IMG/VR virus record: IMGVR_UViG_3300013121_000008
Coordinates: 1-64,000 of that record
From: a virus
Lineage: Duplodnaviria > Heunggongvirae > Uroviricota > Caudoviricetes
DNA length: 64,000 nt
Reading direction: 5' to 3' (one strand)
The first letter of the stretch is position 1, and every line of letters begins with the position of its first letter. Below the pieces are notes generated by a model. The model worked only from the letters and a program-made list of their open reading frames with translations, was not told the DNA's origin and searched no databases. A program made the translations under genes and the position numbers. Below, one piece after another: positions 521 to 57,775 of the stretch.

Positions 521-1732
521 TTAATTTTCCTTATCGTTTATATTTATTATTTCTAAATATAAATTTTCTATTTTATTTAAATCTGGTTTATCTGGAAGAA
601 TTGTTTTCTTTTCTTTAACTAATTGATAAAGATTATATTCTTTCTGTTTTCCAATCTCTAATAACTCATTAAAAGTCATTGAACCATTACGAATATCTTT
701 TAAGAATTTAGCTTTTTCTTCTGGTTGGCGAACATTAAAAGTTCCAGTAGTCAATAATTCTTCACATTGCATTAACAAACGCATTAAATGAAGACCATGC
801 TTACCATCAAAACCATAAGCAGCTTCTAATTCTGCTCTATCTTTGTTTCTATTTTCTTTCCAATTGAGAAATTGTTTATATTCTCTTTTGGCTCTGAAAT
901 AAGCTTTTTCTTTCTTTAGATAATCAGTAAACGAAGTTTCGAATCCTAATGTTTCGCTTAATTCATTAGATATATCTTCTTGTATTTCTATCCAATTGTT
1001 TAAATTGGGATCAAATTTAAATCCTTTATTATCCATTAAAGTAGCCAACAAAGCGGCAACTGAATAGAAAAACTTTTCTTTTGTTTCGTTTGTAGCATTT
1101 ACAAGCCAAGGAGAAATTTCTTCTAAGCTATTTGAAACAAAATTTATAACAGCTTGTAGTTCAGATTCGTTTAATGATTTTTCTGTTTCTAATAAACCGA
1201 AATCACTTCTGGTTGGAACTTTATCCCATTTTTCAATATTGTCTAAATATTTTTTATGAGTTTCAATTCTTTTTAATTGGCTAATAGCATAACCAGTGAA
1301 TGAATATAAAGCTCTATTAGATAGAAATAGATGTTTATTATTTCTAAGTAAATTAGATATTTTTTCATTATGGAAAACAACTAAATTATCTCCAGAAAAT
1401 AATATTTCAATTATATTTGGATTACATTCCGTAGCTAATTTAAAGAATTTTTCTAATGAGAACACAGTAGCTTCATAAAGTTTTTCTTTATCTTTAACTG
1501 TTTCACTTTCTCTACCTGATAATTCTTCAGATTTCCATATGGTTTGCTCAAAGTTTTTAAATAATCTATTTCTATAAGATAATGGAGGAATACATATCCC
1601 TCTATAATCCCAATCAGAGTTTTCTAAATTAGTTCCATAAGCTCTTGATCCACCTAAAACTAATAAAATAGTAGCTTTTTGTAAGTTAAATTCTTGAAAT
1701 GTTTTAGGCCAGTCAAAAGGTATATTATTCAT
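521..1732 (-). CDS. RlaP-like (PF10127-type) predicted nucleotidyltransferase
   Basis: N-terminal LVLGGSRAYGTNLENSDWDYRGI matches the G-S-x-A-Y-G-T...SD-x-D-x-RG signature of the RNA-repair-associated nucleotidyltransferase family; 403 aa ORF. Confidence 0.5.
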   Translation of the reverse strand: MNNIPFDWPKTFQEFNLQKATILLVLGGSRAYGTNLENSDWDYRGICIPPLSYRNRLFKNFEQTIWKSEELSGRESETVKDKEKLYEATVFSLEKFFKLATECNPNIIEILFSGDNLVVFHNEKISNLLRNNKHLFLSNRALYSFTGYAISQLKRIETHKKYLDNIEKWDKVPTRSDFGLLETEKSLNESELQAVINFVSNSLEEISPWLVNATNETKEKFFYSVAALLATLMDNKGFKFDPNLNNWIEIQEDISNELSETLGFETSFTDYLKKEKAYFRAKREYKQFLNWKENRNKDRAELEAAYGFDGKHGLHLMRLLMQCEELLTTGTFNVRQPEEKAKFLKDIRNGSMTFNELLEIGKQKEYNLYQLVKEKKTILPDKPDLNKIENLYLEIININDKEN

Positions 1733-4215: not shown

Positions 4216-4296
4216 GCGGGAACAATGGGATTCGAACCCATGATGTTTTATTATTGATTTAGAATCAATCTTCTTCGACCTCTTGAATATATTCCC
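4216..4296 (-). tRNA. tRNA with anticodon CUA (candidate amber suppressor); CCA not encoded
   Basis: Minus-strand cloverleaf: acceptor GGGAATA/TGTTCCC, D-arm with GG, anticodon stem ATTGA/TCAAT with loop TTCTAAA (anticodon CTA), T-arm ATGGG-TTCGAAT-CCCAT. The 11-nt variable region is unusual. Confidence 0.45.
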
Positions 4297-6193: not shown

Positions 6194-7591
6194 CTACATC
6201 ATATTTTCAAATTGATTTGAAACAATGATTCCTTTTAGTTGTTGATCTTTGTATAAGCCCCAAAAAAGTTCGCGCAACTTCTTTTCGTGAAAATCTACTA
6301 ATATTTTTTCACTCATTTTCTTGCATTTAACTTCTTCTGGCTCTTCACCTTCGTTACAAACAATACTAACTTTCTTGTTGGTGTAACGTTTTCCTGCACT
6401 AAAATCAATAACCTGGAGAATAGATAGACCATTCCAACGATGTCCCTCTTTTCTAACTCTAAAGTTATGGAAATTAATTTCTTTTAAGAAAAGATTCTGC
6501 ATCCAATTTCCAATCTTTTCAGCTTCCTTCAAAGATTTTGTAGATTCTTCATAAGAATTCTTCTTATAGAATATTTGTTTTTCTACTCCATCACTTTCGT
6601 AAGTGTAGGTATTGTAACACATGTTGAATTCATATTCTCCATTAGAATTTTGAATCATTCTAATTAAGTCAGAGTAATCTAATGTGTAATGCGGCCCGTC
6701 AATAGAATCTTTTTCTTGTAGGTCAAGAGGTTCTTCACCGTCAGTAACTGATTCTACTCTTTGCTTAGAGAATAAAGACCACCAACTATATTTATTTACT
6801 GCTTGGCAGAAACTAATAAAATCTTCACGCTCTAATGGAATATTCATTATTGGGAAACTTGCGTTGAAACCAATACTTAAAAGTCCAAGTAGTGAGAAAA
6901 TTAGACGTGCCTCTTCTTTAGCAACTTTTCGTTTGTGTTTAGAAGAAATAGTTTTAATTAACTTGTTGCCTAATTCTAAAGTTAAAGCAGAAGCTTTTTC
7001 TTTAACTTCTAAATCTTCATGTTTAACGAATTCTTGACCAATTTTTTCGGTCCAATTTGCAGGACATCCAATTTTAGTGTAACAAGGTACAGAAACTTCA
7101 ATTATGTATTTAACATATTTGTCAGTATTGTCACCCCAGAATTCTCTTAATTTTTCTATTCTTTCCACAAGTTTAGAAGAAATAGTAAACCAACGAATTA
7201 AATCAGAAGAAATGGTATGAGAGTAGTCGGTTACCATTTCAAAGTTTTGGCTTCTTAGTTCTTCGTCGCCATCGTTTTTATAGAATAGAATGACGCTTTT
7301 GTTAATTCTATTTTCAAGAAGATTAACGATTCTAGGTCCATATTCTCCTAATAGAATATTGAGGGTGTAAATAGAGTCTTCAAGAGCCATTGACATTCTT
7401 TCGTCGATTGGAGGTTTATTGACAATATTTTGCTCTTCTTTTTCGAGCATTTCTTGCCAACTGCCATATTCGGTACTTGAATCATCAAATTTTTCAATGT
7501 ATTTTGATTGGCCTTCGGTAAAAACAGTAAAACCAAGTTCGAAATCTTTGAAATCGATTCCGTTTGAAGCGTGAGGAATTAGTTCAATCAT
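6194..7591 (-). CDS. hypothetical protein (weak KxDG nucleotidyltransferase-like motif)
   Basis: 465 aa ORF. Contains ...ILFYKNDGDEEL... (K-x-D-G as in ligase motif I) at about residue 105 and a later ESDGVEKQIFYKKNSY segment. The similarity is speculative. Confidence 0.4.
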   Translation of the reverse strand: MIELIPHASNGIDFKDFELGFTVFTEGQSKYIEKFDDSSTEYGSWQEMLEKEEQNIVNKPPIDERMSMALEDSIYTLNILLGEYGPRIVNLLENRINKSVILFYKNDGDEELRSQNFEMVTDYSHTISSDLIRWFTISSKLVERIEKLREFWGDNTDKYVKYIIEVSVPCYTKIGCPANWTEKIGQEFVKHEDLEVKEKASALTLELGNKLIKTISSKHKRKVAKEEARLIFSLLGLLSIGFNASFPIMNIPLEREDFISFCQAVNKYSWWSLFSKQRVESVTDGEEPLDLQEKDSIDGPHYTLDYSDLIRMIQNSNGEYEFNMCYNTYTYESDGVEKQIFYKKNSYEESTKSLKEAEKIGNWMQNLFLKEINFHNFRVRKEGHRWNGLSILQVIDFSAGKRYTNKKVSIVCNEGEEPEEVKCKKMSEKILVDFHEKKLRELFWGLYKDQQLKGIIVSNQFENMM

Positions 7592-7690
7592 TTTGTACCT
7601 AGAGAATAAATAGGTTAAATAGAATAAAAACAGCTAATAAAAGAAAACTAATTATTAAATTGTTTATTAATAGATAGGTTAAGTATAAAA

Positions 7691-8044
7691 TCATGATAAA
7701 TCTTTTACACTTCCTAATAACATTTGAGTAGATGGCATGAAGTTAAAAGAAATAGCAGAATCGCTATCATCAGTTATAATTATTTGAAACTCTTCTTTAA
7801 CTTCAAATGATAATTCTTTTGGAGAATAGTTTGTATAATAAGATATTTGATTAACAAATTCTATTATTGCATCAACGCCAGAAATTGTCATTGTTGGAGT
7901 GACCTCTACTCCAGTATATACAAAAAGTAAACTTTCAGAGGTTAATGAATTTTCTATCTCTTTTAATTCGGTGTTGCTTATCATTTTTTTTCCTTTTAAA
8001 GTGGTGGAGATAACGGGACTCGACAATTTATCCTTTATTTTCAT
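7691..8044 (-). CDS. hypothetical protein
   Basis: 117 aa ORF. Confidence 0.35.
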   Translation of the reverse strand: MKIKDKLSSPVISTTLKGKKMISNTELKEIENSLTSESLLFVYTGVEVTPTMTISGVDAIIEFVNQISYYTNYSPKELSFEVKEEFQIIITDDSDSAISFNFMPSTQMLLGSVKDLS

Positions 8045-10329: not shown

Positions 10330-10785
10330 TTAAACTACGGCTACAGTTAGAACATCAGCAGTTGGCATGGCGTTCACTACCAATGCTTGTTCGTGGAGAT
10401 AGTTTGCTCTACCAATCGATAGGAAACCAACATCTGCTCTACGCCAACGAGTGTCAGCGGCAAGGTCTTCGTGTGTTTTGTAACGACGATAGCGAGGGTG
10501 CGTTGCGAGGAAGTGTTTGATAACGCTCTCGGCAAAAAGATTTTCAGTTCCACGAGGAATTTCACCATCGATATCCCCATTTGCAAGTCTTCCTCCGGCG
10601 ATTAAGCGAGCGATTCTTTTGCTGAAGAAGTCTACTCGCTTAAGACTGTCGCCTCGACCAGAAGCCTCTACGCAAAAAGCATGAGAGTATCTAATAATAT
10701 TATCTTCTACAGTGTAACTAAGAGTTACCGTACCGAATGAGTTACCAGACCGAACTAGATGAATGTAAGCATAACGTGTGTTCAT
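10330..10785 (-). CDS. hypothetical protein (GC-elevated gene)
   Basis: 151 aa ORF; GC content clearly higher than neighbours. Confidence 0.4.
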   Translation of the reverse strand: MNTRYAYIHLVRSGNSFGTVTLSYTVEDNIIRYSHAFCVEASGRGDSLKRVDFFSKRIARLIAGGRLANGDIDGEIPRGTENLFAESVIKHFLATHPRYRRYKTHEDLAADTRWRRADVGFLSIGRANYLHEQALVVNAMPTADVLTVAVV

Positions 10786-10948
10786 TTTATTTTATTCCTT
10801 TATATTATTTGTTAACTTTTGACGTGAATTCGAACTTCATACCCCTAAAGTGTTCGGAGTGCCTAAAGAACTCTTTACCTTTAAAAGTAAATGGGCCTTC
10901 ATAGTTGTATTGAATCTCTTCTTCTTTTTTCTTTTTAAAAAGTGACAT

Positions 10949-11197
10949 TTACGACCTTAAGTAATAGAAACTACCATCTGCTTTTCTTCTCGTGACGTTA
11001 GGAATAGCATTACGATAATTTCTCTCATGAACGAATAAAAGAGGTTCGTTACCTTCTCTATTGATAATGAGGTCTAATTTAATCGAAGCTTGACCCTTAG
11101 ATTCACTTTTGCCACCATTATTGGCATGTTTTCTTTTTCTTGCTCTTTTAACATATTTTCTGAAAGGTTCAGGAATTGCTCCGTTCTTTTGTGCCAT
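10949..11197 (-). CDS. hypothetical basic protein
   Basis: 82 aa, K/R-rich. Confidence 0.3.
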   Translation of the reverse strand: MAQKNGAIPEPFRKYVKRARKRKHANNGGKSESKGQASIKLDLIINREGNEPLLFVHERNYRNAIPNVTRRKADGSFYYLRS

Positions 11198-28060: not shown

Positions 28061-28135
28061 TGGTGTATGCAGCAGGATTCGAACCTACGTTTCCTTGCGG
28101 GTGCAAGGTGTCCTAGTCCTCTAGACGATACATAC
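28061..28135 (-). tRNA. tRNA-like (Gly/Glu-type body, aberrant 6-nt anticodon loop); possible pseudogene
   Basis: Acceptor GTATGTA/TGCATAC, D-arm GTCTAGAGGACTAGGAC, T-arm GTAGG-TTCGAAT-CCTGC. The anticodon stem CCTTG/CAAGG encloses only 6 nt. Confidence 0.35.
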
Positions 28136-29897: not shown

Positions 29898-30239
29898 TGG
29901 TGCCCCGAGCGGGACTTGAACCCGCACGATCTTTTAATCGGAAGATTTTCGTCCCAACTATTGCTTTCGCAACTAAGATAATGGTAATCTTATTTGTGGG
30001 CTGGACTATGCCTTCACCCTTCTCATTGAGTTAGGGTGCGCTCCGTCTAGTCTCTACACTTTTCTTAGGGAAATTAATGTCTAAATATACTTATGACGAA
30101 GATAGTCTTCGTGAAAACCTAAGACTTAGCTCGGCGTTGTCATTTCAGATTTCACCGAATTTGAAGCGATTCACATATGAAATTTCTTTCATAGTGCTCA
30201 ATTTATAAGTCTCCCGCGTCTACCATTCCGCCACCAGGG
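29898..30239 (-). tRNA. trnL: tRNA-Leu(TAA) interrupted by a group I intron in the anticodon loop (exons 30207..30239 and 29898..29949)
   Basis: The 5' exon reads GCCCTGG TG GCGGAATGGTAGACGCG GGAGA CTT (ends at U34). The 3' exon reads AAAATCTTC + variable stem-loop CGATTAAAAGATCG + GCGGG-TTCAAGT-CCCGC + TCGGGGC-A-CCA. The acceptor pairs perfectly and the spliced anticodon loop would be CTTAAAA. Confidence 0.6.
29950..30206 (-). ncRNA. group I intron (tRNA-Leu(UAA) anticodon-loop type, cyanobacterial/plastid-like)
   Basis: About 257 nt inserted between anticodon positions 34/35. The 5' end is ATAAATTGAGCACTATGAAAGAAATT and the 3' end is ...GGGACG (terminal G). Core elements AGTGTAGAGACTAGACGGAGCGCACCCTAAC and GAAGGCATAGTCCAGCC resemble the conserved R/S (P7/P3) elements of trnL(UAA) group I introns as recalled from memory. 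A GCGAAAGC GNRA-loop lies near the 3' end. Confidence 0.55.
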
Positions 30240-30763
30240 CCTAAAGTTCTTTTTGGGTTTTCTTTTGTACTCAGCACTAGCGCTGTCACGGATCAACCTA
30301 TTTTTTACTTAATAGGTGTACTAACCCAAAACCGTGATTTCTAACATGATACTTATTATGGGCTTTCAACCCTCTGAGTTTCTTAATTGTCTTACTCAGA
30401 GCCGAGACGTTGGAACCTCTTCGAAAAAATGTTCGCAATGTTGATTAGAAAATTACTTGTTGACGAACAAGCCTAACCGCCTAAGACAAGTAGTTTTCAA
30501 GCTTACTTGTTGTTTCTTGCCTTACTTAGACTGGCACTCGTTGTTGCAGACGAGCCTGTCCTCTCATATTTGCGTTCCTTGAGGTAGCGAACTTGATCGT
30601 TAATGAATTGAGCTTGAACTTACACTAGAACGCCTACGCGCCCCCTGACTCCGACAGGACTTTTCGATTACAAGTCGAATGTGCTTGGAACCGACCAAGG
30701 CTCCATGGACTGTTCGTTACCTTTCTTCGCTATTGGTCTAACTAGGAAAGATTGCTCAAAATG

Positions 30764-31015
30764 TTAGAAGCTTCTGCGTAGCTCTTCTCGAAGATACTCT
30801 TTATCTTGCTGGAGCCTCTCTACAGAAGTTTGTAGCCTACTAATTTGGATTTGCTGCTTTTCGATGATTTTGTTCGCGATATCGGTGATTTCGATTAGTT
30901 TTCCGAAGGCCACATGAAGAGCAACAATGTCTTTTTCCATCTTGCTAATTCTTTGATCTTGATCCATTGTAGCTCCTATGTTACGGATCGCTGGTGTCAC
31001 ACGGAGAGCCACCAC
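30764..31015 (-). CDS. hypothetical coiled-coil protein
   Basis: 83 aa ORF. Confidence 0.3.
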   Translation of the reverse strand: MVALRVTPAIRNIGATMDQDQRISKMEKDIVALHVAFGKLIEITDIANKIIEKQQIQISRLQTSVERLQQDKEYLREELRRSF

Positions 31016-31259
31016 TGCTACGACTCATCTCGTACTGGACATCGACATCCGATGCCTGATATGCACGAGCATGGAAGCCATGACACTGACGACCATCCTT
31101 CTTGTAGGCGCCATAGTCTACTACTTGATTGCCCGTGGTTTTGGCTTCGAACATAGCCGGTCGAATTAGTTCGGCAGCTCGCTTCGGGTCCGGAGTGGGA
31201 TCCATTGGACAGTCGACAACCGAATTGAAAGCTTGACGGGCGGCATTGGTGATAATCAT
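30981..31259 (-). CDS. hypothetical protein
   Basis: 92 aa ORF. Confidence 0.3.
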   Translation of the reverse strand: MIITNAARQAFNSVVDCPMDPTPDPKRAAELIRPAMFEAKTTGNQVVDYGAYKKDGRQCHGFHARAYQASDVDVQYEMSRSSGGSPCDTSDP

Positions 31260-32973
31260 CTTAGACTCCGCTATTTGATTTTATTTTTGTTTAAGGGTAA
31301 AGAGTGTTTGTTTTTGATGAGGTCCTTGCCATCTCAAGAATGAAGATGTCTTCAAAAAAAACAACAGGAAACAAACAACCTTGTCGAGAGGATTTATCTA
31401 CACTGATAAGTATGTTAAGCGTAGGTTTCAGTCTCTCAATTATTCATTGAGATTTATAGCCTTTCACCAATTGGAGGGGCCGCTTAAACCCTAACAGAAT
31501 CTTTCCGCAGTCTGTTAACTGGCCGTGTCGTGATCGCGTCACGGGTAGATTGTACACACATTAGCTATTGTTTCCCACTCACTGCTGGTTGACTCTATTT
31601 AACATAAGAGGTTATGTCTCTCTATGAGAGATCTCCGGCGCATTGTGTACTGGTGAGTATTTGTCGAGTTCTGTAGGATATCCAAAAGTGCTGATTACTC
31701 TATTCTACGGCTAGCCCAACTTGAAGCCATCAGACACTACTCGACTATTGGTTGCCCAATCATTTGCATGACCCGCACTCGGTTGCTACCAGCCACCTTT
31801 CTAACTGGTATTCATCGTTCTAAGGGCCGCTAAGCCATTGAGGTCAAAGTGAACGATTACGGAACCTATTGGACTGGAGTGCATTGGGCGTAAGAAGGTT
31901 ACCTTGATTTGCGTCTCTTAGGTTCTTCTTTTAAGGGGTCGCCCAACCCTTTTTGATTTGTTCAGATGGATACGTCCTGACTGTGATTCCATCTTTTTCA
32001 TAAACAGTAGTAAAGTCAGTTTGTTCGCTACTGTTGAATTCCCAGTTTTCTCTGGTCTTAATATCAAGCTTTACGTACTTGATGTAAAAACCCACTTATT
32101 TTTCAAAGTAAGGTCGAGATATATTTCAATCTCTCTTTAATCACGGCCTGCACGACCCTTCGGCTGAGTTTCTGGTCTAATCAATTAGACCAAGGTTTTA
32201 TGGGATTGACGCATTGGGACTTGAACCCTTCGTGATATTGAACGTTAATCACAACATTCATTCTCAGAACATCCAGGAGGTGACTCTCCATTTGTGATGC
32301 GCCATGAAATTTGCGAAGTCAAGGTTAAAGTTTCCTTCGCCGGAACTACCAAATAGCCGAATCTTGTCGGTCACAAAGCTCTTACGAGACGATAGTATTT
32401 AAGTTCTTTATGGTTTTCGCGTCCCCACCATCAAAGCAGTCAGGAGCTACCTGACAATGAATCACAGTGTTTAAATCTCTATACAGAAGAAGACTCTAGA
32501 GAGAATGATTTTTACCAGACTTATCTCTTCTTAGCGTTACTGGTAACTGTGAAGATTTTGCTGGACTACCAGCCAGTCCCTTTATTTACGGCATATACCG
32601 ATATTTTGGAACGTCTTAGCCAGGGTATTAATGCACCCTGTAAAAATGTGAGGTGAAGACTATCCCTCGTCCCGGCTTTCGTCACCCTGTACAGTTATCA
32701 GGGCCCGGTTTGAGCATCTATTTATTTTTGAGGCTTTTCTGTTTACCCTCTCCGTCAGTAGCTGTATAGATGCTAGTTCTACTGAGTTTATGTACAGTCT
32801 CGTTACATCCTGTACGTGGTAGTTCCCTAACCGTTGTACTACTTTATAGTGTCGTCGTAAGGACTTATCCTAGGTTGTCCTGGTTTGCTAAACCCACACT
32901 CAACAGAGCCCGGCGGCACGTCTCCGATTTGCTTTCGCGTACCCTTTTGAGCGATGTTGATTTTCATGGCTTC

Positions 32974-33198
32974 CTACTTGCTAGGGACGACTTCGAATTC
33001 GATTTCGACCCAAGTAACTAGTGTATCGTTGTTAAAATTATACATGTCACCAGTTGTGAGTTCGACTGCGCGCTTTTGATGCAATTGTGCGCTGAGGGGC
33101 GTCATGAGATAGTATTCATTATTCGTGAAGAAAGTATCTCCAGGCTCGACGTACTGAATACACATTTCCTTACCAGAGATATTTTGCTTATATTTCAT
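32974..33198 (-). CDS. hypothetical protein
   Basis: 74 aa ORF. Confidence 0.3.
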   Translation of the reverse strand: MKYKQNISGKEMCIQYVEPGDTFFTNNEYYLMTPLSAQLHQKRAVELTTGDMYNFNNDTLVTWVEIEFEVVPSK

Positions 33199-33749
33199 GG
33201 TTTCTCCTTGTGGTGAAGGGCGTAGGTCGCTTCCCCTTCGTAAGCCCCATAGGTTACCTCAGAAGAGCTAGTTACTCTCTGTAGGGGATCCTACTGCTCT
33301 AGATTACAGTAGTTATTTGATTGTCCCGCAAGCGCGCCAATTGGGACAAAATGTTGTAGAGTAATAGAGGATTTGAAGGACCCAGGAACCTGCGTAATAG
33401 CTTACGCGCAAGCTTCTTACCTCTACAAACTGTCCACTCTACAAAAATGTTGTGCGGTTATTGAATATCCACGGTAGAGCGAAGCTCACCTACCCACCGC
33501 AAGTCCTGTATTTCGAATTACTCACGATATTCGCAGGGCATATGACCTCCCTACGCCGCAGGTTTCGCGCACGCCTGTTGTTCGGATAGATAGGATTTAA
33601 TGGAGCCTTTCGGTTATCCAAATCCAGCGAGGTATCCTTTGAACTCTACTGGTGAAATTCATCAGGTTTCCAACGTTACCTGAATCACCCTTTTCTATTT
33701 TGATTGACCAAAGAGTTTCGGAACTCTTTAGGTAAGGGATTGTGACTTG

Positions 33750-35074: not shown

Positions 35075-36142
35075 TTACTGGGTTTCCTGTCGGTACTCCC
35101 AGTTCTCCATCTCCAGTCGCTGCCAGTCAGCCTTCTCGCGAACGAAGAGGGCGCTCCAGGGGGTTTTGAGTGAAGTAGGGGCATCGATGCCCAGTTCCTC
35201 ACCCTGACGCTCCTTGAGGGCCTCCAGACGCTCCAACGAAGCCATGGCGTAGATATACTGCTTGATGCAGTACAGCTTGGAGGACTTGGGGTTCTTGCTT
35301 CCCATCTCCTGCCATTCGTACCAGAAGATGGTACGAAACCAACCAGAAAGCTCCTTCTTCTTCGTCGGAGTCAGAGTCCCGTTGATCTCTTTCAGCAGCG
35401 TCACCATGGGCGCATTGTTGAACTCGATCCAGCGGCCATCTTCGAATCGTCCGTTCTGCCCCACACTGTAGGCCAGAGAGAAGATTGGCTCCATGTTGAT
35501 GGATTCCCCAGCGGCCTCGTTGATGGAACGAATCTTCTTCGCCATCGTCACGAAGTTGTCCAGCTCTCCTCGCACCTTCTTCCAGATCTTTCGACCCTTG
35601 AATGTGGGAGACTTGTTTCCGAAGACGGCCAGGATCCAGGACTTGATGCCCCGAATCGCCATCTCGTACTTGTAGGTGGCCTTGTCGACCTCCTCGTCAG
35701 TGAACGTACCCACGAATTCGAGAACGTCCTCGTCTCCGGTGATGACGGTCTTGATTCGCTCGAAGTCCGCATCGAGGGAGACGAGTTTGTCCTCCATCTC
35801 CCATTCCTGCATCTTGGACGCCCAGAAGCACGCCCGACGAAGGAACATTTCTTCCGGAGAGTCCTTGCTCCAGTGATTCGTCCCGATCTCGCCACCATCG
35901 CCGCTCTTTCGAACGGGGATGATGTTCCCGTCCTTGTCCTTGAGCGCGACCTTGTGGATAATTCCGTTCTTGTCAGGAACGTTCTTGTGGTACGCGCAGA
36001 CCTGAAGGATCGACTGCAGGTCCATGTTGTGCCAGTCGGGCAGGTCGCCTAGAGCGTCAGTTCGCTCGGACGTATCCTCCACTACGGACCCCATCTCCAG
36101 CTTGTCCTCGTGTTCGTTCTCGACTTCGACTTCGATTTCCAT
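35075..36142 (-). CDS. hypothetical protein, paralog family A/B (with 39160..40524)
   Basis: 355 aa; shares LPDW..M.L..I..VC...DG....P..D..GN.IPVRK and downstream blocks with the 454-aa ORF; preceded by SD AGGAGACA. Confidence 0.55.
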   Translation of the reverse strand: MEIEVEVENEHEDKLEMGSVVEDTSERTDALGDLPDWHNMDLQSILQVCAYHKNVPDKNGIIHKVALKDKDGNIIPVRKSGDGGEIGTNHWSKDSPEEMFLRRACFWASKMQEWEMEDKLVSLDADFERIKTVITGDEDVLEFVGTFTDEEVDKATYKYEMAIRGIKSWILAVFGNKSPTFKGRKIWKKVRGELDNFVTMAKKIRSINEAAGESINMEPIFSLAYSVGQNGRFEDGRWIEFNNAPMVTLLKEINGTLTPTKKKELSGWFRTIFWYEWQEMGSKNPKSSKLYCIKQYIYAMASLERLEALKERQGEELGIDAPTSLKTPWSALFVREKADWQRLEMENWEYRQETQ

Positions 36143-36555: not shown

Positions 36556-36894
36556 CTAGTAGCGGGCGTGAACGTAGAAGTCCACGACCCTCACGATGGT
36601 GCCCTCCGGAAGTGAGAGGATGTCGACATCGGCGTTCGAGATGCTTTCGTGGAGCTTGATGGAGACGAGGGCCTTGGCCAGCTGGGCGTTGTGCTTCCCG
36701 ACGGTGAAATCGGTGATGCAGGATGGCTCCTGACCCGGTTCGGTGACGATGTAGTCCTCGACGTTCTCGGGCACCAAGTTGCCGGAGTAGCAGGTCTTTC
36801 GGAAGACGCGCCGGCTGGGACGAGACGGAACCTTGACGGTGATGATGGTGGTGGTGGTCAGCGTGGGCTTGAGCTTGGACATATTTTTCTCCAC
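36556..36894 (-). CDS. hypothetical protein
   Basis: 112 aa; SD GAGGTGGAG upstream of ATG. Confidence 0.45.
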   Translation of the reverse strand: MEKNMSKLKPTLTTTTIITVKVPSRPSRRVFRKTCYSGNLVPENVEDYIVTEPGQEPSCITDFTVGKHNAQLAKALVSIKLHESISNADVDILSLPEGTIVRVVDFYVHARY

Positions 36895-37682: not shown

Positions 37683-37810
37683 TAAGAGAAGGTATTTAGG
37701 TATTTAGAAGGTCTTTTAGGTATTTAAAGGTGATTATAGGTATTTGAGGTAGTTTAGGTATTTGAGGGTGATTAGGGTATTTTGGGTATTTAAAGGTATT
37801 TTGGTATTTG
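37683..37810. repeat. tandem iteron-like repeats (GGTATTT core, ~10 copies at 11-12 bp spacing)
   Basis: AGGTATTTAGGTATTTAGAAGGTCTTTTAGGTATTTAAAGGTGATTATAGGTATTTGAGGTAGTTTAGGTATTTGAGGGTGATTAGGGTATTTTGGGTATTTAAAGGTATTTTGGTATTTG, located in a roughly 0.9 kb ORF-free gap. Confidence 0.6.
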
Positions 37811-38418: not shown

Positions 38419-39003
38419 CTAGTCGTCCCACTCCGAGTCACACTCGAAGCACGGAGTTCCCAATTCCGTGCCGTGAACGCACGTCTCGATCTTCTTGGTC
38501 TTCCGACGCACGTTCTTCACGATCCGGGGCTGGAATAGGGCTTCCTGCTCGGACTTCTGCTCCTCGACGGCAGGCGGTTCCTCTCGCACCACCGGCTTCG
38601 GCACCACCGGCTTCTCGACCGGCTTCGTGGGTTCCGTCCCCATCTTCGGGAACGGAAGGAGGAAGATCCAGAAGGGCGCCCCGTGGAAGGACAGGGGGAT
38701 GCCCCGCCGATTGGTCTTCATCTTCTCGACGGCTCCCGCGAACCACCGGTTCCCGCCCTGCCAGTAGTCCTGGCGATCAAAGGACACTTTCACCACGCGA
38801 GTGTTGCTGTCCCAGGCCACAATGGCCCGGTTGTGCCACTCAACCCCGCACCACTTGAACAAGATCTTGATCTTCTCCAGCTCCTCCACCGTGGGCTGAC
38901 GGAGGGTCACTCGGGACAGGATGTGCCCCACCTTCTCCTGCGAGGTCAACTCACGGTTGAAGCTGATCTGAGCGAGGTCCTGGTTGTACACGAATTCACG
39001 CAT
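38419..39003 (-). CDS. hypothetical protein with Pro-rich linker and C-terminal zinc ribbon
   Basis: C-terminal CVHGTELGTPCFEC; PKPVVREEPPAVEE linker; the ATG at 39003 is preceded by GGGAG. Confidence 0.45.
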   Translation of the reverse strand: MREFVYNQDLAQISFNRELTSQEKVGHILSRVTLRQPTVEELEKIKILFKWCGVEWHNRAIVAWDSNTRVVKVSFDRQDYWQGGNRWFAGAVEKMKTNRRGIPLSFHGAPFWIFLLPFPKMGTEPTKPVEKPVVPKPVVREEPPAVEEQKSEQEALFQPRIVKNVRRKTKKIETCVHGTELGTPCFECDSEWDD

Positions 39004-39088
39004 GACTGACTCCCGTATGATTGTGTCATACACACAGACCTTGTTGATCCAGTAAGTTCTACACTATGTAGATCCTGGTACGGTTGGT

Positions 39089-39159: not shown

Positions 39160-40524
39160 CTACTTAGCCAGGAAGCGCTCACGCTCCTCGCTGGTCATGT
39201 GGACGTTCTTCACGTCCACCGTCCAGTGGTCAGGGCGCCGGATCTCCTCCAGCCACTTGTGGTTGAAGAGGTCGAACTTGAAGCCCGACTTCTCGTTCCG
39301 GCCCTCGCTGAGCCACGACCAGTCCATCTCCTCCTTGCGGAAGTAGTCGGACCAGTTGGTCTTCATGAGGTTCACCGTCTCACGGTCGACGTGCTTGTCT
39401 TCGGCCAGAGCCTCCAACAGCGCGATCTGGATGAGCGAACCCATCCAGCGGAGCAGGGTGCCCTTGACGGCATCCGACATCCCCGTCCGGACCTCAGCCC
39501 AGAACCAACGCTTGAAGAAGCCGTTGAACTTCTTCTTCGTGTCGTTCTGGACGTAGCCGCCCGTGGGGAGGTGCTTCTCCACGCTCGACCAGATGTGGGG
39601 CCCGTTGGCCTTCTCCCACTTCTGATCGATGTAGAGGCCACCCCACTGGAGGATGGAGATCACGGCACACTTCTCGTCGAAGTCCACCGCGAACTCCTTG
39701 GCCTCCTGCACGGCGCAGTAGAACGTGGTCTTCACGTCCTTCCACACCTTCTTGGCCGTCTCCTTGCCGAAGACGCGGACCAGCCAGCGACGGAACTCCA
39801 GCGAGTCCCGCTCCAGCTTCTCCTGTTCCCGGAGGGTCATCGCCTCCAGGATGTCCTCGGCCGAGGTGAACGGGGACTTCTCCCACACGGACTGCGAGGC
39901 GCAGGCCACCTCGATGTCGTGCAGGAACTTGTCCACGTCGTAGCCCCATTCCATGAGCAGGAACTCGGCCCGCGCTGCCCGGTTCAGGGCCACGTCGCTC
40001 GGGGACTCCTCACCCCAGGTGTTCTTGCCCATCGAGGGCTCGTACACCGGATCCTTGCGGACGGGGATGAGGTTGCCCTCGTTGTCCCGCATCGGGGTCC
40101 GGATGACGATGCCATCCTTCGCCTCCGACTTGACGTAACAGACGCCTAGGATGATCTCCTCCAACGTCATGCTACCCCAATCGGGAAGCGCCTTGAAGAC
40201 GTCATCGCCGTCCTGGTCCTCGTCGGCCTCCACCGCCACGATCCCGGTCGGGGAGTCCTTGTAGTCCATCTCGGGCTGGACCACCTCCTCCTGCGCGAAG
40301 GACTTGTTGCGGCCCCACAGCGCGAAGAGGTCGAGGACGACTCCCTTCGCCACCATCCGACCCGTCTTCAGGTCGCGGTAGCGGTCCCCGGAGATCGCGA
40401 TGTCCATCTCGGCCAGGAAGAGCGCCAGAGGCCCGAAGGCCTTGGTGGCGGCCTGGGAGACGACGGAGGGGACGGTGTTGATGATCTTGGACATTGCTGA
40501 CTCCACAATGCGTACTGCCGGCAC
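39160..40524 (-). CDS. hypothetical protein, paralog family A/B (with 35075..36142)
   Basis: 454 aa; collinear similarity to the 355-aa ORF across several blocks. Confidence 0.55.
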   Translation of the reverse strand: MPAVRIVESAMSKIINTVPSVVSQAATKAFGPLALFLAEMDIAISGDRYRDLKTGRMVAKGVVLDLFALWGRNKSFAQEEVVQPEMDYKDSPTGIVAVEADEDQDGDDVFKALPDWGSMTLEEIILGVCYVKSEAKDGIVIRTPMRDNEGNLIPVRKDPVYEPSMGKNTWGEESPSDVALNRAARAEFLLMEWGYDVDKFLHDIEVACASQSVWEKSPFTSAEDILEAMTLREQEKLERDSLEFRRWLVRVFGKETAKKVWKDVKTTFYCAVQEAKEFAVDFDEKCAVISILQWGGLYIDQKWEKANGPHIWSSVEKHLPTGGYVQNDTKKKFNGFFKRWFWAEVRTGMSDAVKGTLLRWMGSLIQIALLEALAEDKHVDRETVNLMKTNWSDYFRKEEMDWSWLSEGRNEKSGFKFDLFNHKWLEEIRRPDHWTVDVKNVHMTSEERERFLAK

Positions 40525-42184: not shown

Positions 42185-42532
42185 CTAGCAGTAGGCGAGG
42201 TCGTCCCACCTGTAGGGCAGAACCCTACTGTGGGACTGGAGGAACCTCCACTCGCGGTGGAGGCTGTCGATCTCTTCCACGAGCGGGAAGAGTTCCGTCG
42301 TGTCGCAGCCCTGCTTGTAGCAGAACTGCAACACCCTCACGGCCGCACCGATCTCTCGGGCAACCTCCGACCCCTGCAGCGTTGCCGCTACAGAGATCAG
42401 CTCCCGTGCCTCCGCCCGACACAAGGCCGGACGGTCTTCGATCCACGTTGCGACTTCCGCCGCAACCACGACGACCCCACCCAGCATCGCGAGGATGCAG
42501 GTGAGGACGCAGAGCAGAGACGCGAACGCCAT
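42185..42532 (-). CDS. hypothetical membrane protein
   Basis: The ATG at 42532 (MAFASLLCVLTCILAMLGGVVVVAA, TM helix) is preferred. The ORF-track extension runs through the GTTGCTGGTTGTT tandem repeat. Confidence 0.4.
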   Translation of the reverse strand: MAFASLLCVLTCILAMLGGVVVVAAEVATWIEDRPALCRAEARELISVAATLQGSEVAREIGAAVRVLQFCYKQGCDTTELFPLVEEIDSLHREWRFLQSHSRVLPYRWDDLAYC

Positions 42533-43187
42533 CTTCTCTCCTTTTTTGTTGCTGGTTGTTGTTGCTGGTTGTTGGTTGGGGTTGAACGGCTTTAGAGTAC
42601 CGTTCGCCTCTGTAGAGGACTCAGGGGTTGAAGGATTCATGCCTATTCCCTTCATGGCACTCGGTTTTCCATAGACCGAGAACTGTTACTTCTCTACTTG
42701 CATAGAGCGGTGAGCGTGCTTCGGGGACTTTCACCCCAGGATGCTCACGTAGCCTGCTTAATAGCGCCCTTCCGCGAAGAGCATCTATCGACCTGTTACC
42801 CAGGTTCCAGCCGTTACTAGTGAAGGGGGAGACTATCATCTACCGTATGGCATCCAGTAGATGTAGCAATCACGTTCGCGGTCTGGCGGCATACTGGTAC
42901 ACCTGTCCCTTCAGGACTATTCACAATCTCCAGTGCTAGAAGACTGCTGTTTGCAGGTGGGTACGTGTGGCACACATACCTTCCTCTGATGTGGCAAGCA
43001 TCAGGCTACCTGTATCGTCACCTGGGGGTATCCCCAAGCCTCCGTTACCATTTCTGGTGTAGGGTGAACCCCTACCAGTAGCATATCCCGTATACTAGTA
43101 GCACCGTAGTACCACTAGTCTTACTGTATGTTGTGTGCATACAGAGGACTGGGCTTGTACCCGCAAGGACTACTGTTCAGTAGTCTG

Positions 43188-50221: not shown

Positions 50222-51580
50222 ATGGAATTTACTCAAAAAGAAATAAATTTAGGTTTGATTACTTCTAAATATGAAGAAGCTTTATTAAAAAGTGAAGATA
50301 AAAAAGCTTTTAAAGTTATGTTGGCTTCTACTATCAAGGATTTAGATTTTATTAATCAGATAACTGAGAACTCTATAAATAAGTTTCCGGGGACAAAGTA
50401 TTCAGATACCGTTCCTTCAAAGAAACAATCTCAAGAAACTGTATCTTTGGAAGTTTTAGAAAATCTAAATCTTAAAAATGTAGATCCAAATAAATTATTA
50501 AACTATATAGAGAAATGTCTTGATTGTGATAATAGAATAAAATTTGATTTTCAATTGAATCCAGATTTAAATCTATCTGAATCTTTTAGTAATTTAATGT
50601 CAGATGTTAATCAAAGTCTTTCCTTAATAGACGAAACGTTCTCTAAAGAAAGAGACTTATCTCAAATTTGTGCCTTATTAAGACTATTTGAGGGCATTAC
50701 TTGTCCACAAGACATACTTATGATGATTATATCTTTCAAATTAGCGTTAAAGCAGTACGCTAGCCAAGGTTTGTCTTTGAAATTTGACTGGCTTACCTTA
50801 TTCGGTCCAATAATTCAAGGAATAGCTCAATTGTTAGCGGCACTGACGAACACAATGTTTTCTATTATTGAAAACCCATTAGATTGTCTGATGTCTAAGA
50901 TTTATGCTAATTTAGACTTGCTAAAACAAATAAATCCAGACATGTTTAACGGCTCAGATCCCAATATATTAAATATATCAACTGTATCTTCAACAAAAGA
51001 TGGTTTTAAACAGAATACATTAACTTTAGAGCAGTTTGACGAGAAAATTAATCAAAAAAATTCTGTTCCGACTGGTTTTGATTTAAACTTTAATCTAATT
51101 GATTTTATAAATCTAAATGGTTCAGATTCTTTTTCTAAATTGTCTCTTCCAGATAAATTTGTCTTAGCTTTTCAAGACGCAAGAAATACAATTGCTAGAT
51201 TAAAAAATAAAATATTAGAATTGATAAATAATATAAATGGTTTGGTAAAGAACGGGAAATTGTTAGAAATTAAAAACATATCAATTATATTATTTATTAC
51301 AGATATACTTTCTTTCCTTGGTGAATTTATAAATCTTGATTTTGATAATCTTTATCAACTTTGTGAAAATAATCCTTCAAAACTAGAAGATTTGGTAAAA
51401 TCATTATATAATGATGTTGATACCTCTGTAAAAAGAGTTGATAATGGTTTTGAAATTATATTATCTTCTAACGATGAGGATAGAAAGATTTATGTTAATA
51501 GTTGTGCTACAGTGAAATCTGAAAGTCTTAACTATCTCAATAACTTAATAGATGACATAGAGAGCAAACTGAATGGATAA
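50222..51580 (+). CDS. hypothetical structural/assembly protein
   Basis: 452 aa ORF in morphogenesis block. Confidence 0.45.
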   Translation: MEFTQKEINLGLITSKYEEALLKSEDKKAFKVMLASTIKDLDFINQITENSINKFPGTKYSDTVPSKKQSQETVSLEVLENLNLKNVDPNKLLNYIEKCLDCDNRIKFDFQLNPDLNLSESFSNLMSDVNQSLSLIDETFSKERDLSQICALLRLFEGITCPQDILMMIISFKLALKQYASQGLSLKFDWLTLFGPIIQGIAQLLAALTNTMFSIIENPLDCLMSKIYANLDLLKQINPDMFNGSDPNILNISTVSSTKDGFKQNTLTLEQFDEKINQKNSVPTGFDLNFNLIDFINLNGSDSFSKLSLPDKFVLAFQDARNTIARLKNKILELINNINGLVKNGKLLEIKNISIILFITDILSFLGEFINLDFDNLYQLCENNPSKLEDLVKSLYNDVDTSVKRVDNGFEIILSSNDEDRKIYVNSCATVKSESLNYLNNLIDDIESKLNG

Positions 51581-53345
51581 AGATTTAATCGAAATTTTTA
51601 ACAATTTAAACTTGTTGAATGATGCCGTTTCTACTTCTTATAGTAAAATAAAGCCTCTTCGAAACCCAGTTAACAGTTATGGCCGCAATTTAGGTATTTT
51701 CTCAAAACCAGCTTTTAATTTTGGTAATATAAAATCTGCTCAACAAACAGACAGTTATCTTTCTAGAGCTATTGAAAAGAAAACTCTTAAATTCTTATTG
51801 GGCGGTTATGAATTCAATGGCGAAAATCATAAAACTGTTACTTATATATTGAAAAGAATAAAGCAATTTGAAATAGCTTCTAAAAAACCATGGACAATTT
51901 TATTAAAAGAAACTGCTCATGATTTGTTTAGATATCAAAATGCTATGTGGCTTTTAGTTAGAGACGAAAATAATTCTGGTGGAAGAGTATATAAGCAGAA
52001 CGGAAAAGAAATAAAACCAATCGCTGGTATATTTATACTACCTTTCGAAGCACTTGAATTCAAAAGAAAGTCTAATGGCGAAATAGAAAAGGTAAAACTA
52101 AACGTTCCTGGCGCAAAAACATCTCCCGAATGGCCAATAGAGAATATTATTCATTTTTATGTTAACAAAAACCCAGGAGATATAGTAGCAAATCCAATTC
52201 TATTCTCATGTATCGAAGATTTAACATTTTTAAGAAGAATTGAAGAAAACGTATTAGAATTAATAGAATCTAATTTATTTCCTCTATTTCACTATAAAAT
52301 TGGCACTGATGACTATCCAGAAGTAATAAATCCAAAAACTGGTATGAGAGAAGCAGAAGAAATGGCAGAGGTATTAGAATATATGCCGTCCTCTGGATTG
52401 TATATCTCTGACTGGAGACATAGTATAGAAGCTATAGGTTCTGAGGGCAGGGCCCTTAATATCGATAACTACTTAGAATACTTTAAGAAAAGAGTTTTTG
52501 CCGCACTAGGAATGTCAGCTACTGACTTTGGTGAGGGTGACACTTCTAATAGAAGCACCGCACAAACTCAATCTAAGTCTTTAACGGAAGCTGTAGAAGC
52601 CGTTCAAATCGTTATAAAGACTTTTATAGATACCTATTTAATTCCACAATTATTAATAGAAAGTGTTTTTAAATTTGATGTAAGTGCTCCAGAAAATTTA
52701 GTAGAAATTAATTTTAATAAAATTGATATATCTGAACAAATTTTAATGGAAAACAACGGTAAGGAACTGTATAACTCTAATGCTATTACTTACGAAGAAT
52801 ATAGAAAGCATATTGGTAAAAAACCGCTTAAAGAAGAACAAGAAAGTTCTCTTATGTATCATAAATTTCCCAATAGAGCAGAGATTGCTAAAGTAGAACA
52901 AATTAAATCTGGAAGTGCTTCTAGCACAACTGCACAAAATCAACACGGTAAGGCTAGAAAAAAGACTAGTTCTCAAAAAGATAATAGATTAATAAAATTA
53001 TTTGAAAATATAAAATTGGACTTTATTTTAAAAACAAAATCTGAAATAGATTCAAATATAATTGATAATTATGTCAATGAACTATATAATATTTACAATC
53101 TTAAATATTTTGGCTATAAATACAATTTTGAAGAGCAAGATTACGATACAAAGATAAACTTGTATAGACAATCTGCTGATAAAATTATAGAATTTATTGA
53201 TTTAATAAATAAAAAAGTTGAATTTTCTGATCAGTTTTCTATTAAATTAGAAATGTTAATAGATAATACTGTATGGTATTTCGAAGATATTCAAAAAGAA
53301 TTAGAATCTTTCAATAAAAAAATAGAACAAGAAGAGAATTTATAA
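51573..53345 (+). CDS. putative portal protein (assigned by size and position only)
   Basis: 590 aa; downstream of terL and upstream of capsid candidates; no motif verified. Confidence 0.35.
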   Translation: MDKDLIEIFNNLNLLNDAVSTSYSKIKPLRNPVNSYGRNLGIFSKPAFNFGNIKSAQQTDSYLSRAIEKKTLKFLLGGYEFNGENHKTVTYILKRIKQFEIASKKPWTILLKETAHDLFRYQNAMWLLVRDENNSGGRVYKQNGKEIKPIAGIFILPFEALEFKRKSNGEIEKVKLNVPGAKTSPEWPIENIIHFYVNKNPGDIVANPILFSCIEDLTFLRRIEENVLELIESNLFPLFHYKIGTDDYPEVINPKTGMREAEEMAEVLEYMPSSGLYISDWRHSIEAIGSEGRALNIDNYLEYFKKRVFAALGMSATDFGEGDTSNRSTAQTQSKSLTEAVEAVQIVIKTFIDTYLIPQLLIESVFKFDVSAPENLVEINFNKIDISEQILMENNGKELYNSNAITYEEYRKHIGKKPLKEEQESSLMYHKFPNRAEIAKVEQIKSGSASSTTAQNQHGKARKKTSSQKDNRLIKLFENIKLDFILKTKSEIDSNIIDNYVNELYNIYNLKYFGYKYNFEEQDYDTKINLYRQSADKIIEFIDLINKKVEFSDQFSIKLEMLIDNTVWYFEDIQKELESFNKKIEQEENL

Positions 53346-56464: not shown

Positions 56465-57775
56465 ATGTATAAGTTTAAATTAAACGACGGAAAAGAACTA
56501 GAGTTACCAGTTGGTGAAGCTACTGATCCAAAAGCCAAGAAAAGAACTGCTGCTAAGTTCTTGGCAGACACTTGGAAAAATCACGGCTTTACTCCAGAAG
56601 GCGACTATTTAGAATTTGGTAAAATTGTAGACTTAATTTCTACTACAGAAATGTCTGAATTGTTACCTATTGCTACCGAATGGATCTTAAGAGAACCTGT
56701 TGAGCCAATATTAGCCATCACTAGTCTTTACACTAGAGTTATGGCAAAAGGTCTTAGCCAGAATATCGTTATGGGTGCTTTAGGTGCTATCGCTGCTGGC
56801 GATGCTGATGAAGGCGGTAACTACCCTGAAGTATCATTCGATACCGGCGGTGCCGTGACTACAGCTACCATCGGTAAAAGTGGTATTCAAGCCTCATTTA
56901 CTGATGAAGCTTTAAGATACATCCCATGGGATATCATGGCTATCCAATTAAGATTAATGAGACAAGCAGTCTTAAGACACACTGAATACAAAGCTATTAA
57001 ATTCTTATTGGCTATGGGTCAAGTCTTATTCGACAATGCTAATCCTACTTCATCTTTATTCGGTGTGACTACTGGTAGAGCAATGGACGGTTCAGCAAAC
57101 GGTTCATTAATCATGGACGATATTTTGACTGCCTATACTCACATGGTAGAAACTGGATACACTCCTGATACATTAGTTATGTCTCCTCAATTCTACTTTA
57201 TGTGGGTTAAAGATCCTGTATTGAAATACTTATTCATGGAAGGATCAGGAAGAGGCGTCTACTTTGCAACCTATACTGGTAATCCTGCTCCTCTTCCAAA
57301 TTGGAGTAACGGTGCTCTAGGCGCAATGGGTCCTTCAAATGGCTACAACGTAATTCCTATGGGTAACGCTGCTGGCGAAACTGCTACTGGATTAGAAGAA
57401 ACTTCTCCAGTTGCTAACTCTGCTCCAGTAATTCCTAACTACTTAGGTCTTCCATTAAGAATTATAGTCTCTCCATTGATGCCATACGATCCTACTACAA
57501 AATTAGGTCATATCTTCTTGGTTGCTTCTGGTAGAGTAGGTTATCACTTAATTGATGAAGAACCATCTACTACAGAATGGCGTGACGAAGATAGAGAATT
57601 AATCAAAGTCAAAATTAAGCAAAGAGATAGTTTTGCAGTTGTTGATGATGGAAACGGTATCTGTGTGTTCAGAAACGTAAAGAACGTTGAAAACTACTAC
57701 CACGGTCATGTTCAATTGACACAAACAGTTTCAGGACAAATTACTGAAATTGATCCAGACACTGCTGTAGTCTAA
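56465..57775 (+). CDS. major capsid protein candidate
   Basis: 436 aa; strong SD (AAGGAG) 7 nt upstream; the composition and size are typical of HK97-fold capsid proteins; followed by the hairpin GGGCCCCTGAGGCCC. Confidence 0.45.
   Translation: MYKFKLNDGKELELPVGEATDPKAKKRTAAKFLADTWKNHGFTPEGDYLEFGKIVDLISTTEMSELLPIATEWILREPVEPILAITSLYTRVMAKGLSQNIVMGALGAIAAGDADEGGNYPEVSFDTGGAVTTATIGKSGIQASFTDEALRYIPWDIMAIQLRLMRQAVLRHTEYKAIKFLLAMGQVLFDNANPTSSLFGVTTGRAMDGSANGSLIMDDILTAYTHMVETGYTPDTLVMSPQFYFMWVKDPVLKYLFMEGSGRGVYFATYTGNPAPLPNWSNGALGAMGPSNGYNVIPMGNAAGETATGLEETSPVANSAPVIPNYLGLPLRIIVSPLMPYDPTTKLGHIFLVASGRVGYHLIDEEPSTTEWRDEDRELIKVKIKQRDSFAVVDDGNGICVFRNVKNVENYYHGHVQLTQTVSGQITEIDPDTAVV

Follow-up and report, generated by a model that had tools for sequence, protein, structure and literature searches.

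Introduction

The intron of tRNA-Leu(UAA) is the textbook "ancient" intron of bacteria, and the spread of tRNA introns between lineages is debated. In cyanobacteria and plastids, the trnL(UAA) intron interrupts the anticodon loop between U34 and A35 (CUU/intron/AAAA), has a U·G wobble at position −1 and a terminal G, measures about 250 nt, folds into helices P1–P9 with GNRA loops on P2 and P9, and has no open reading frame (ORF). All these properties recur in an element from a 64,000-nt stretch of tailed-phage DNA (positions 1 to 64,000 of IMG/VR record IMGVR_UViG_3300013121_000008, referred to as the window). Judged from its sequence, the segment 30240..29898 on the minus strand very probably provides a large tailed phage with a functional tRNA-Leu(UAA) gene, interrupted by a compact, endonuclease-less group I intron of the bacterial tRNA type, similar to those of Azoarcus and Anabaena. 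The element is a new example of a familiar kind of intron, the group I introns at position 34/35 of tRNA-Leu(UAA); its added interest lies in the phage host, an endonuclease remnant and a phage-associated intron family. The cyanobacterial and plastid introns reside in a cell or organelle, whereas this one is located on a tailed phage, with a remnant of an HNH gene in P6, an extra P9a hairpin and a core motif that is absent from cyanobacterial species representatives.

The group I intron of Azoarcus tRNA-Ile(CAU), a member of subgroup IC3 with structures in PMC13168695 as well as older crystal structures, differs from the window intron in its tRNA, in its position within the anticodon loop, in its location on a bacterial chromosome and in having no endonuclease remnant. 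Bacterial tRNA group I introns mostly fall into subgroup IC, and HNH genes within tRNA-Leu(UAA) introns have been reported for Bacteroidota (PMC13011429). Horizontal transfer of tRNA introns was described as infrequent in this recent survey because most copies are devoid of endonuclease genes (PMC13011429).

Phage group I introns of the classical type (T4 td, nrdB and nrdD; the DNA polymerase introns of SPO1 and Bastille; Twort) are self-splicing ribozymes, often with HNH or GIY-YIG homing endonucleases, traits that the lineage of the window intron probably shares. They split protein-coding genes, whereas the window intron splits a tRNA gene. According to a 2014 review, all phage introns then known were in protein-coding genes, despite the many tRNA genes of phages (PMC3984707). 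The "enigmatic" tRNA introns of Lak phages were later presented as the first phage tRNA introns by Devoto et al. 2019, one of them possibly encoding a tRNA itself (PMC6784885), and tRNA introns were also noted in alternatively coded jumbo phages (PMC13037316); neither set was reported as group I. These very large phages combine tRNA introns with tRNA arrays and suppressor tRNAs. The window intron is a clear group I ribozyme. Searches of open-access full texts found no paper on a group I intron in a phage tRNA gene.

Exon–Intron Structure of the tRNA-Leu(UAA) Gene

With introns allowed, ARAGORN reports tRNA-Leu(taa) c[29898,30240], i(35,257), a gene of 343 nt at 29898..30240 on the minus strand that is also delineated by the fold of the spliced product. 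Neither default ARAGORN nor the Rfam tRNA model calls this gene in scans of the whole window. The 5′ exon (34 nt, G1–U34, 30240..30207; GCCCUGGUGGCGGAAUGGUAGACGCGGGAGACUU) provides the 5′ strand of the acceptor stem, the D arm and the 5′ strand of the anticodon stem, and ends with C32-U33-U34, as assigned from the sequence and ARAGORN. The 3′ exon (52 nt, A35–A76, 29949..29898; AAAAUCUUCCGAUUAAAAGAUCGUGCGGGUUCAAGUCCCGCUCGGGGCACCA) opens with AAAAUCUUC, comprises A35-A36, the long variable arm and the T arm, and closes with A73 and an encoded CCA. Between the two lies the 257-nt group I intron (30206..29950), which starts with A and ends with G (ωG at 29950). It begins with AUAAAUUGAG (at greater length, AUAAAUUGAGCAC) and closes with UUGGGACG, the last letters being GGGACG. 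Stop codons throughout all three of its frames leave no ORF, and its GC content is 38.5%, with 57% in the exons.

Joining the exons in silico, with the junction GGGAGACUU/AAAAUCUUCCGA, yields an 86-nt class II cloverleaf with a long variable arm, which ARAGORN identifies as tRNA-Leu(taa). The anticodon loop of this product reads CUUAAAA, and the acceptor stem is formed by 7 bp, two being G·U. As the insertion falls between U34 and A35 and the tRNA-Leu has the anticodon UAA, the element belongs to the class "Leu.3Ug". The original prediction, made from the letters alone, had proposed a phage tRNA-Leu(UAA) with a 257-nt group I intron between U34 and A35, exons that form a complete class II tRNA-Leu with encoded CCA, a CUUAAAA loop upon joining, and an intron that starts right after U34 and ends in G. 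The exon structure agrees with each of these points, and the Rfam match, covariation and homologues described below sustain the intron assignment. Two details required adjustment. The locus had been given as 29898-30239, which is the right place, but the true end is 30240, so that G1 was dropped by one base. The acceptor pairing had been called perfect; all 7 pairs do form, but with two G·U pairs the wording was slightly overstated.

Fold of the Intron

In a covariance search in E-value mode, the Rfam family RF00028 (Intron_gpI) aligns along its whole model (positions 1-253) to 30216..29982 of the minus strand with 46.7 bits, under the gathering score of 50 bits. The E-value is 1.2e-10 when 751 nt are searched and 2.6e-9 for 16.3 kb. 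The seeds of this model are non-bacterial. Far lower Rfam scores of 18-20 bits have been accepted for tRNA introns inside a split tRNA call (Williams 2020, doi 10.1101/2020.01.27.920355). Three homologues of the window intron, L146 (62.2 bits), L138 (53.7 bits) and L137 (53.2 bits), exceed the cut-off.

A complete P1–P9 fold including the P3/P7 pseudoknot could be drawn by hand, with all elements on the minus strand. In P1 (30197..30209), C32-U33-U34 (30209-30207) pairs with the guide G-A-G (30199-30197), placing a U34·G wobble at the 5′ splice site, and U-U at 30201-30200 may pair with A35-A36 to form P10. The P2 hairpin (30172..30196) is capped by a GAAA tetraloop (L2), displays compensatory changes in 10/10 of its pairs and is also recovered by minimum free energy (MFE) folding. 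The following region (30058..30168) comprises the 5′ strand of P3 (30168-30163), J3/4 and the P4-P5-P6 domain; here P4, P5 and the outer extension of P6 covary, and P3 and P6 are invariant or compensated. The helices of this domain are P4 (30158-30153 with 30136-30131), P5 (30149-30148 with 30141-30140), P6 (30130-30129 with 30059-30058) and P6a (30123-30118 with 30069-30064), the last being a perfect 6-bp stem, CUUAGG/CCUAAG, that closes a 46-nt loop.

The catalytic core block (30030..30059) holds J6/7, the 5′ strand of P7 (30052-30048), P3′ (30044-30039) and the start of P8. The P8 hairpin (30015..30038), with compensatory changes in 6/8 pairs, includes a variant of the GAAA-tetraloop receptor (CCCUAAC...GAGAAGGG). 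J8/7 and the 3′ strand of P7 (30008-30004) occupy 30003..30015 in agreement with the Rfam consensus UgAAGAUAUAGUC, and the pairs of the pseudoknot were counted in the scoring. The P9 domain (29950..30000) is composed of P9 (30000-29997 with 29956-29953), P9a (29992-29974) and P9b (29972-29961; UUGC-GAAA-GCAA), followed by A-C-G with the terminal ωG. The P9a hairpin is an insertion peculiar to the lineage of the window and its relative L134. The other main helices are P3 CGCUUC/GGAGCG, P4 UCGGUG/CGCCGA, P7 GACUA/UAGUC and P8 CACCCU/AGGGUG. MFE folding alone yields P2, P4/P5, P8 and P9a/b, with a z-score of −2.9. Two blocks that the original prediction had singled out as conserved core elements both find their place in this fold: GTGTAGAGACTAGACGGAGCGCACCCTAAC (30059..30030) spans J6/7, P7, P3′ and P8, and GAAGGCATAGTCC (30015..30003) spans J8/7 and P7′. 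The GNRA-capped 3′ helix it had mentioned corresponds to P9b with its GAAA loop.

The architecture is that of the Azoarcus and Anabaena introns, namely a compact core without P5abc, a P2 helix, GNRA loops L2 and L9 and a P8 receptor, which is a variant in the window. The Azoarcus blocks at P3-P4 (CAAAUUCGG.GAAAC), P4′-P6 (CGCCGAGCCAAGC) and J6/7-P7 (GGUGUAGAGACUAGACGG) are nearly identical to those of the window, and its arrangement of a GAAA L2 with an 11-nt receptor in P8 and a GAAA L9 matches as well, a resemblance that counts as a lead only. At the level of sequence, the element is a genuine group I intron of the compact type known from bacterial tRNA genes, to which architecture and established knowledge would assign an "IC3"-style subgroup label.

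Covariation among Homologues

The fold can be examined against an alignment of 22 distinct family members (alignment A2; MAFFT, >400 columns), which was scored against the hand structure. With the window's own registers, 88% of the cells are paired; with the P9 register of the family, this value is 92.3%, compared to 75.0% in shuffles. Changes on both sides occur in 41/64 pairs, and the covariation score of 0.443 is reached by none of 500 shuffles (0/500; 0.155 shuffled). Sliding the structures by 1-3 columns leaves a covariation of only 0.045-0.10. P2, P3, P4, P5, P7 (pseudoknot), P8, P9 and P9b are each invariant or compensated, and every pair of P9 and P9b covaries in the family register. 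The closing pair of P7 alternates between A-U (12 members), U-A (9) and C-G (1), and a pair of P3 between C-G (15) and U-A (7), so that the pseudoknotted helices too display exchanges. At the splice site the pair is U·G in 20/22 members and C-G in 2/22. In the window, a profile built from the alignment (nhmmer) has a single match, located at 30211..29943 (E = 8e-41) and scoring 138 bits; phage and metagenome relatives score 120-190 bits.

The loops are likewise conserved, with GAAA in L9 of 20/22 members, and GAAA (17/22) or GGAA (5/22) in L2. The canonical 11-nt receptor CCUAAR...UAUGG is found in P8 of 9/22 members. All members with this receptor have GAAA in L2, and the five with a GGAA L2 all share a short P8 (CC[A/C]GAACGG; columns 68-71 and 276-321). 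Tetraloop and receptor thus look as if they co-vary across the alignment.

Endonuclease Remnant and Closest Relatives

The closest relative of the window intron resides on contig L134 (SXGU01461307.1), with an identical sequence on the 26-kb contig L166. An endonuclease version, 68% identical, is present on two 192-kb groundwater contigs, L169 and L170. In all four, ARAGORN finds tRNA-Leu(taa) i(35,676-678) inside a minus-strand tRNA array, which also features PHROG-type ATPases, a tmRNA and a homologue of the RlaP protein of the window. Between the ribozymes of the window and L134, blastn gives two segments with 83-84% identity, and a global alignment gives 87% across 267 positions. The additional ~420 nt of the longer introns are located in the P6 loop and encode, antisense to the tRNA, an HNH endonuclease of 156-163 aa (Pfam HNH/HNH_3; phrog_10822, E = 5e-50) from a protein family of >3,700 members. 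In L134/L166, this gene is the intact 163-aa HNH ORF P0002, and contig L143 has a similar 662-nt intron with an intact endonuclease gene. These HNH-bearing tRNA-Leu(UAA) introns share the insertion site of the window intron; their ORF is intact, whereas in the window about 420 nt are gone.

What is left in the window is a start codon with 13 codons, MSKYTYDEDSLRE, at 30077..30115 on the plus strand, antisense to the tRNA and at the corresponding place in the P6 loop. Of its 13 residues, 11 are identical to the N-terminus of P0002 (MSKYTYTEDQLRE), a segment conserved throughout the HNH family. The ORF lacks about 420 nt, among them those for the HNH motif, and therefore the window copy, which retains a 13-codon stump in place of an intact intron-encoded endonuclease, would be unable to home by itself. 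Because only these first 13 codons of the HNH gene are kept, the window intron is an endonuclease-less derivative, as expected late in a homing cycle. The residues "ENLR" and "LSSAL" in the antisense frame were also considered as further endonuclease remnant, and LSSAL was rejected because it overlaps the conserved P4′/P6 core of the ribozyme.

The relatives' arrays display further features. L169 carries a second, free-standing phrog_10822 HNH endonuclease (7022-7855, plus strand) between tRNA genes, antisense to the array like the intron-encoded one. The tmRNA genes lie at L166:13256-13634 and L169:13575-13954, both on the minus strand, and score 79 and 55 bits in Rfam; the window yielded no tmRNA.

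Distribution of the Intron Family

The family was traced with a 20-mer from the core (GTGTAGAGACTNGACGGAGC; J6/7, P7 and P3′) in an exact scan of IMG/VR, 185,579 species-representative genomes and metagenome contigs. It is identical at 42 other loci, comprising 5 IMG/VR contigs, 4 species-representative genomes and 33 metagenome contigs. The species-representative matches are metagenome-assembled genomes (MAGs) of Paludibacteraceae (Bacteroidota), Bacilli, Bdellovibrionota and Gemmatimonadales. None of the cyanobacterial genomes among the 185,579 species representatives contains the 20-mer. ARAGORN in intron mode places family introns in tRNA genes for Leu(UAA), Arg(UCU), Ile(UAU), Lys(UUU) and Met(CAU), often within tRNA arrays, and blastn revealed tRNA-Leu(taa) i(36,205) in the 735-kb phage LR756501.1. 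The original prediction had called a self-splicing intron in a phage-borne tRNA uncommon, which is true of the literature, but not of public sequence data.

Several other searches returned little. Against GenBank phages, blastn of the locus gave nothing beyond a partial match to LR756501/LR756503, and against plasmids merely an exon-like match. In scans of IMG/VR, neither the spliced junction, which would mark an allele without the intron, nor the P6 insert peculiar to the window had any match (0 each), and no IMG/VR relatives were found via the neighbouring 254-aa protein. A 14-mer (GCTTCAAATTCGGT) produced chiefly chance matches and just 2-3 new family members. The core sequence as a literature text query retrieved unrelated primers only.

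Some contigs host more than one copy. The 175-kb contig L137 has two family introns, at 687-977 and 10717-11065, in an Ile(UAU) and a Leu gene, and the Paludibacteraceae MAG contig L125 has one at 629-996 in Arg(UCU) together with a truncated copy, the second interval being 1072-1164.

In L002, L003 and L033, the same intron core is held in the D-loop of a tRNA-Leu(UAA) with an intact anticodon arm (L002:~1410-1630, minus strand, identical in L004, L006 and L151; L003:~868-1300; L033:~867-1290). The P1 helices at this site read GGUAG/CUGCC, GGUAA/UUGCC or GGUAAA/UUUGCC; they include a U20·G wobble, and one pair is compensatory. When the introns are removed in silico after U20 and after a nearby G, ARAGORN accepts the product as a tRNA-Leu(taa), and the introns measure 217, 361-363 and 341-345 nt. 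The L002-type D-loop intron is without both P2 and P8. The IMG/VR contig L002 also carries a type III hammerhead ribozyme (6582-6637, minus strand) with 52.1 bits, above the Rfam cut-off.

Phage Genome Context and the GC-Rich Island

The window encodes tailed-phage genes as assigned by PHROGs, including a portal (51573-53345), a major head protein (56465-57775) and a tail sheath (61359-63257). With the capsid proteins of jumbo phages of Bacillus, Acinetobacter and Moorella, that of the window shares only ~25% identity; the structural module had no megablast match among phages, and two window proteins were without any entry in exact-protein look-ups. The standard code gives uninterrupted reading frames for the structural genes at 43.9-64 kb. 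The left arm encodes NAMPT, an NMNAT-Nudix protein and an RlaP-type nucleotidyltransferase interspersed with tRNAs. Altogether the window has 16 tRNAs on its minus strand, the split tRNA-Leu and 15 others. The AT-rich genes use TTA more often than any other Leu codon (371/741 Leu codons, 50%; 43.8 per 1000), and a tRNA-Leu(UAA) would therefore be useful to the phage. Among the other tRNA genes, one at 4216-4296 (minus strand) has the anticodon CUA of the amber-suppressor type and is labelled "Pyl" by ARAGORN, and a tRNA-like gene at 28061-28135 (minus strand) has a two-base "anticodon" according to the same program.

The split gene is situated at the edge of a block (28.2-43.4 kb) with 50.5% GC, compared to 32-33% on both flanks, in which local GC rises to 42-66%. 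The minus-strand ORFs of this island (35075-36142, 36556-36894, 38419-39033, 39160-40524 and 42185-42655) have a third-position GC content (GC3) of 0.75-0.93, versus 0.18-0.26 in the phage genes, and contain no TTA codons. They have no Pfam or PHROG match, blastn of the island against GenBank phages gave no match, and a 454-aa ORF has its single homologue (82%) on the 3.9-kb contig L162. The island is either foreign DNA or an assembly chimera. Because its ORFs never use TTA, we regard the split tRNA as part of the phage's own tRNA complement, serving the phage backbone and happening to lie at the island edge.

The position within the GC-rich island had led the original prediction to a cyanobacterial or plastid-like source, a provenance that the comparison does not support, though a deep common ancestry is possible. 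The intron itself has a GC content of 38.5%, the 20-mer is found in no cyanobacterial genome among the species representatives, the island ORFs are free of TTA, and the nearest relatives reside in phage-like tRNA arrays, with an HNH endonuclease of a phage family, rather than in cyanobacteria or plastids.

Other parts of the island have features of their own. A segment of ~3.4 kb (30300-33700; 40-47% GC) has no ORF >100 aa in the standard code and no Rfam match at E<=0.1; decayed genes or a non-coding RNA may account for it. Short AGGTATTT-like units are repeated in tandem at 37690-37797, with 4 copies of a 42-nt register, and GGCCCCGAAGGGCC-type hairpins recur at 38086, 41489, 41813 and 42126.

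Alternative Explanations

Several observations weigh against a functional split gene of the phage. The RF00028 score is 3.3 bits under the curated cut-off, because of which a gathering scan of the whole window gives no match; P5 has just 2 bp, P9 pairs in a register 1 nt away from that of the family, P8 contains a variant receptor, and the P6 deletion together with the P9a insertion could hamper folding. No sigma-70-like promoter was found beside the gene, and its location at the edge of a compositionally foreign ~15-kb island makes an assembly chimera possible. The low score, the weak P5, the slipped register and the variant receptor, along with the stump of the endonuclease gene, could signal a decaying intron that has become splicing-dead after endonuclease loss, rendering the tRNA-Leu(UAA) effectively a pseudogene. 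We consider such decay quite unlikely. Classical bacterial tRNA introns without endonuclease genes self-splice in vitro. The window copy has intact core helices throughout and retains the U·G pair, the terminal G and the two GAAA loops, its 20-nt core recurs unchanged at 42 other loci, and the P6a stem beside the deletion is a perfect 6 bp. The exons make a flawless tRNA, and with UUA as the commonest Leu codon of the phage, selection for a working tRNA is to be expected. Endonuclease genes are, moreover, absent from most bacterial tRNA introns (PMC13011429).

The other two alternatives concern origin. If the block at 28-43 kb were an assembly chimera or recently captured foreign DNA, the split tRNA could stem from a bacterium or another donor, a foreign source that need not be cyanobacterial, as its surroundings of 42-66% GC, the GC3 of the island ORFs, their lack of phage family matches and the occurrence of the same core in bacterial MAGs might suggest. 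This is unlikely given that the tRNA is co-oriented with the 15 other left-arm tRNAs, that the intron has only 38.5% GC, and that TTA is unused by the island ORFs, whereas the phage genes need tRNA-Leu(UAA); the nearest homologues, furthermore, occupy tRNA arrays on phage-like contigs, which have RlaP in common with the window, and the core motif is in no cyanobacterial genome among the species representatives. In favor of a direct orthologue of the ancient trnL(UAA) intron, taken from a cyanobacterium or plastid, are the same insertion site and the same overall architecture. A core motif of cyanobacterial type gave 3 chance matches without introns when scanned. On the alignment profile, an Anabaena intron sequence scores 80 bits and an Azoarcus sequence 52 bits, values that serve as leads only; the window scores 138 bits, within the 120-190 bits of its phage and metagenome relatives. 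With the exact core in 0 cyanobacterial genomes among the species representatives and the same lineage splitting Arg(UCU), Ile(UAU), Lys(UUU) and Met(CAU) tRNAs in phage-like arrays, such direct descent is very improbable. HNH-bearing tRNA-Leu(UAA) introns, too, have so far been reported from Bacteroidota (PMC13011429).

Proposed Splicing Pathway and Implications

For the preferred explanation, a working phage tRNA gene with an endonuclease-less group I intron, we infer actual splicing, the transcription unit and past homing from the observed sequence, fold, covariation, homology, endonuclease remnant and phage context. By standard group I chemistry, the pathway would run as follows. The pre-tRNA would be transcribed together with the adjoining minus-strand tRNA genes, and the intron would fold into P1–P9 with C32-U33-U34 paired to the guide G-A-G. 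An external guanosine would then attack after U34, at the U·G wobble, and the freed 3′-OH of U34 would in turn attack after the terminal G (29950). This would join the exons into the 86-nt tRNA-Leu(UAA) with its encoded CCA and release the 257-nt intron, and the mature tRNA would supply decoding of UUA, the main Leu codon of the phage. The ancestral intron was probably mobile, with an antisense HNH homing endonuclease in the P6 loop that was later deleted down to its first 13 codons, and the present copy would be a self-splicing element incapable of homing alone.

Phage tRNA gene clusters thus also carry these mobile ribozymes, with and without endonuclease. As default tRNA finders miss such genes, the tRNA repertoires of phages are under-counted, here for the most-used Leu codon. 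The presence of the same ribozyme lineage in phage tRNA arrays, in endonuclease-bearing and endonuclease-less form, identifies a plausible vector. We tentatively propose, with slightly less than even confidence, that tRNA group I introns of the bacterial type have a sizeable and hitherto undescribed reservoir and vehicle in large phages with tRNA arrays. A single conserved lineage would occupy Leu(UAA), Arg(UCU), Ile(UAU), Lys(UUU) and Met(CAU) genes with and without HNH genes, one of its branches would sit in the D-loop after U20, a site unreported for group I introns, and the window copy would represent the stage of the homing cycle that follows endonuclease loss, inside a phage. If true, phages could account for the patchy, horizontally scattered occurrence of tRNA introns among bacteria.

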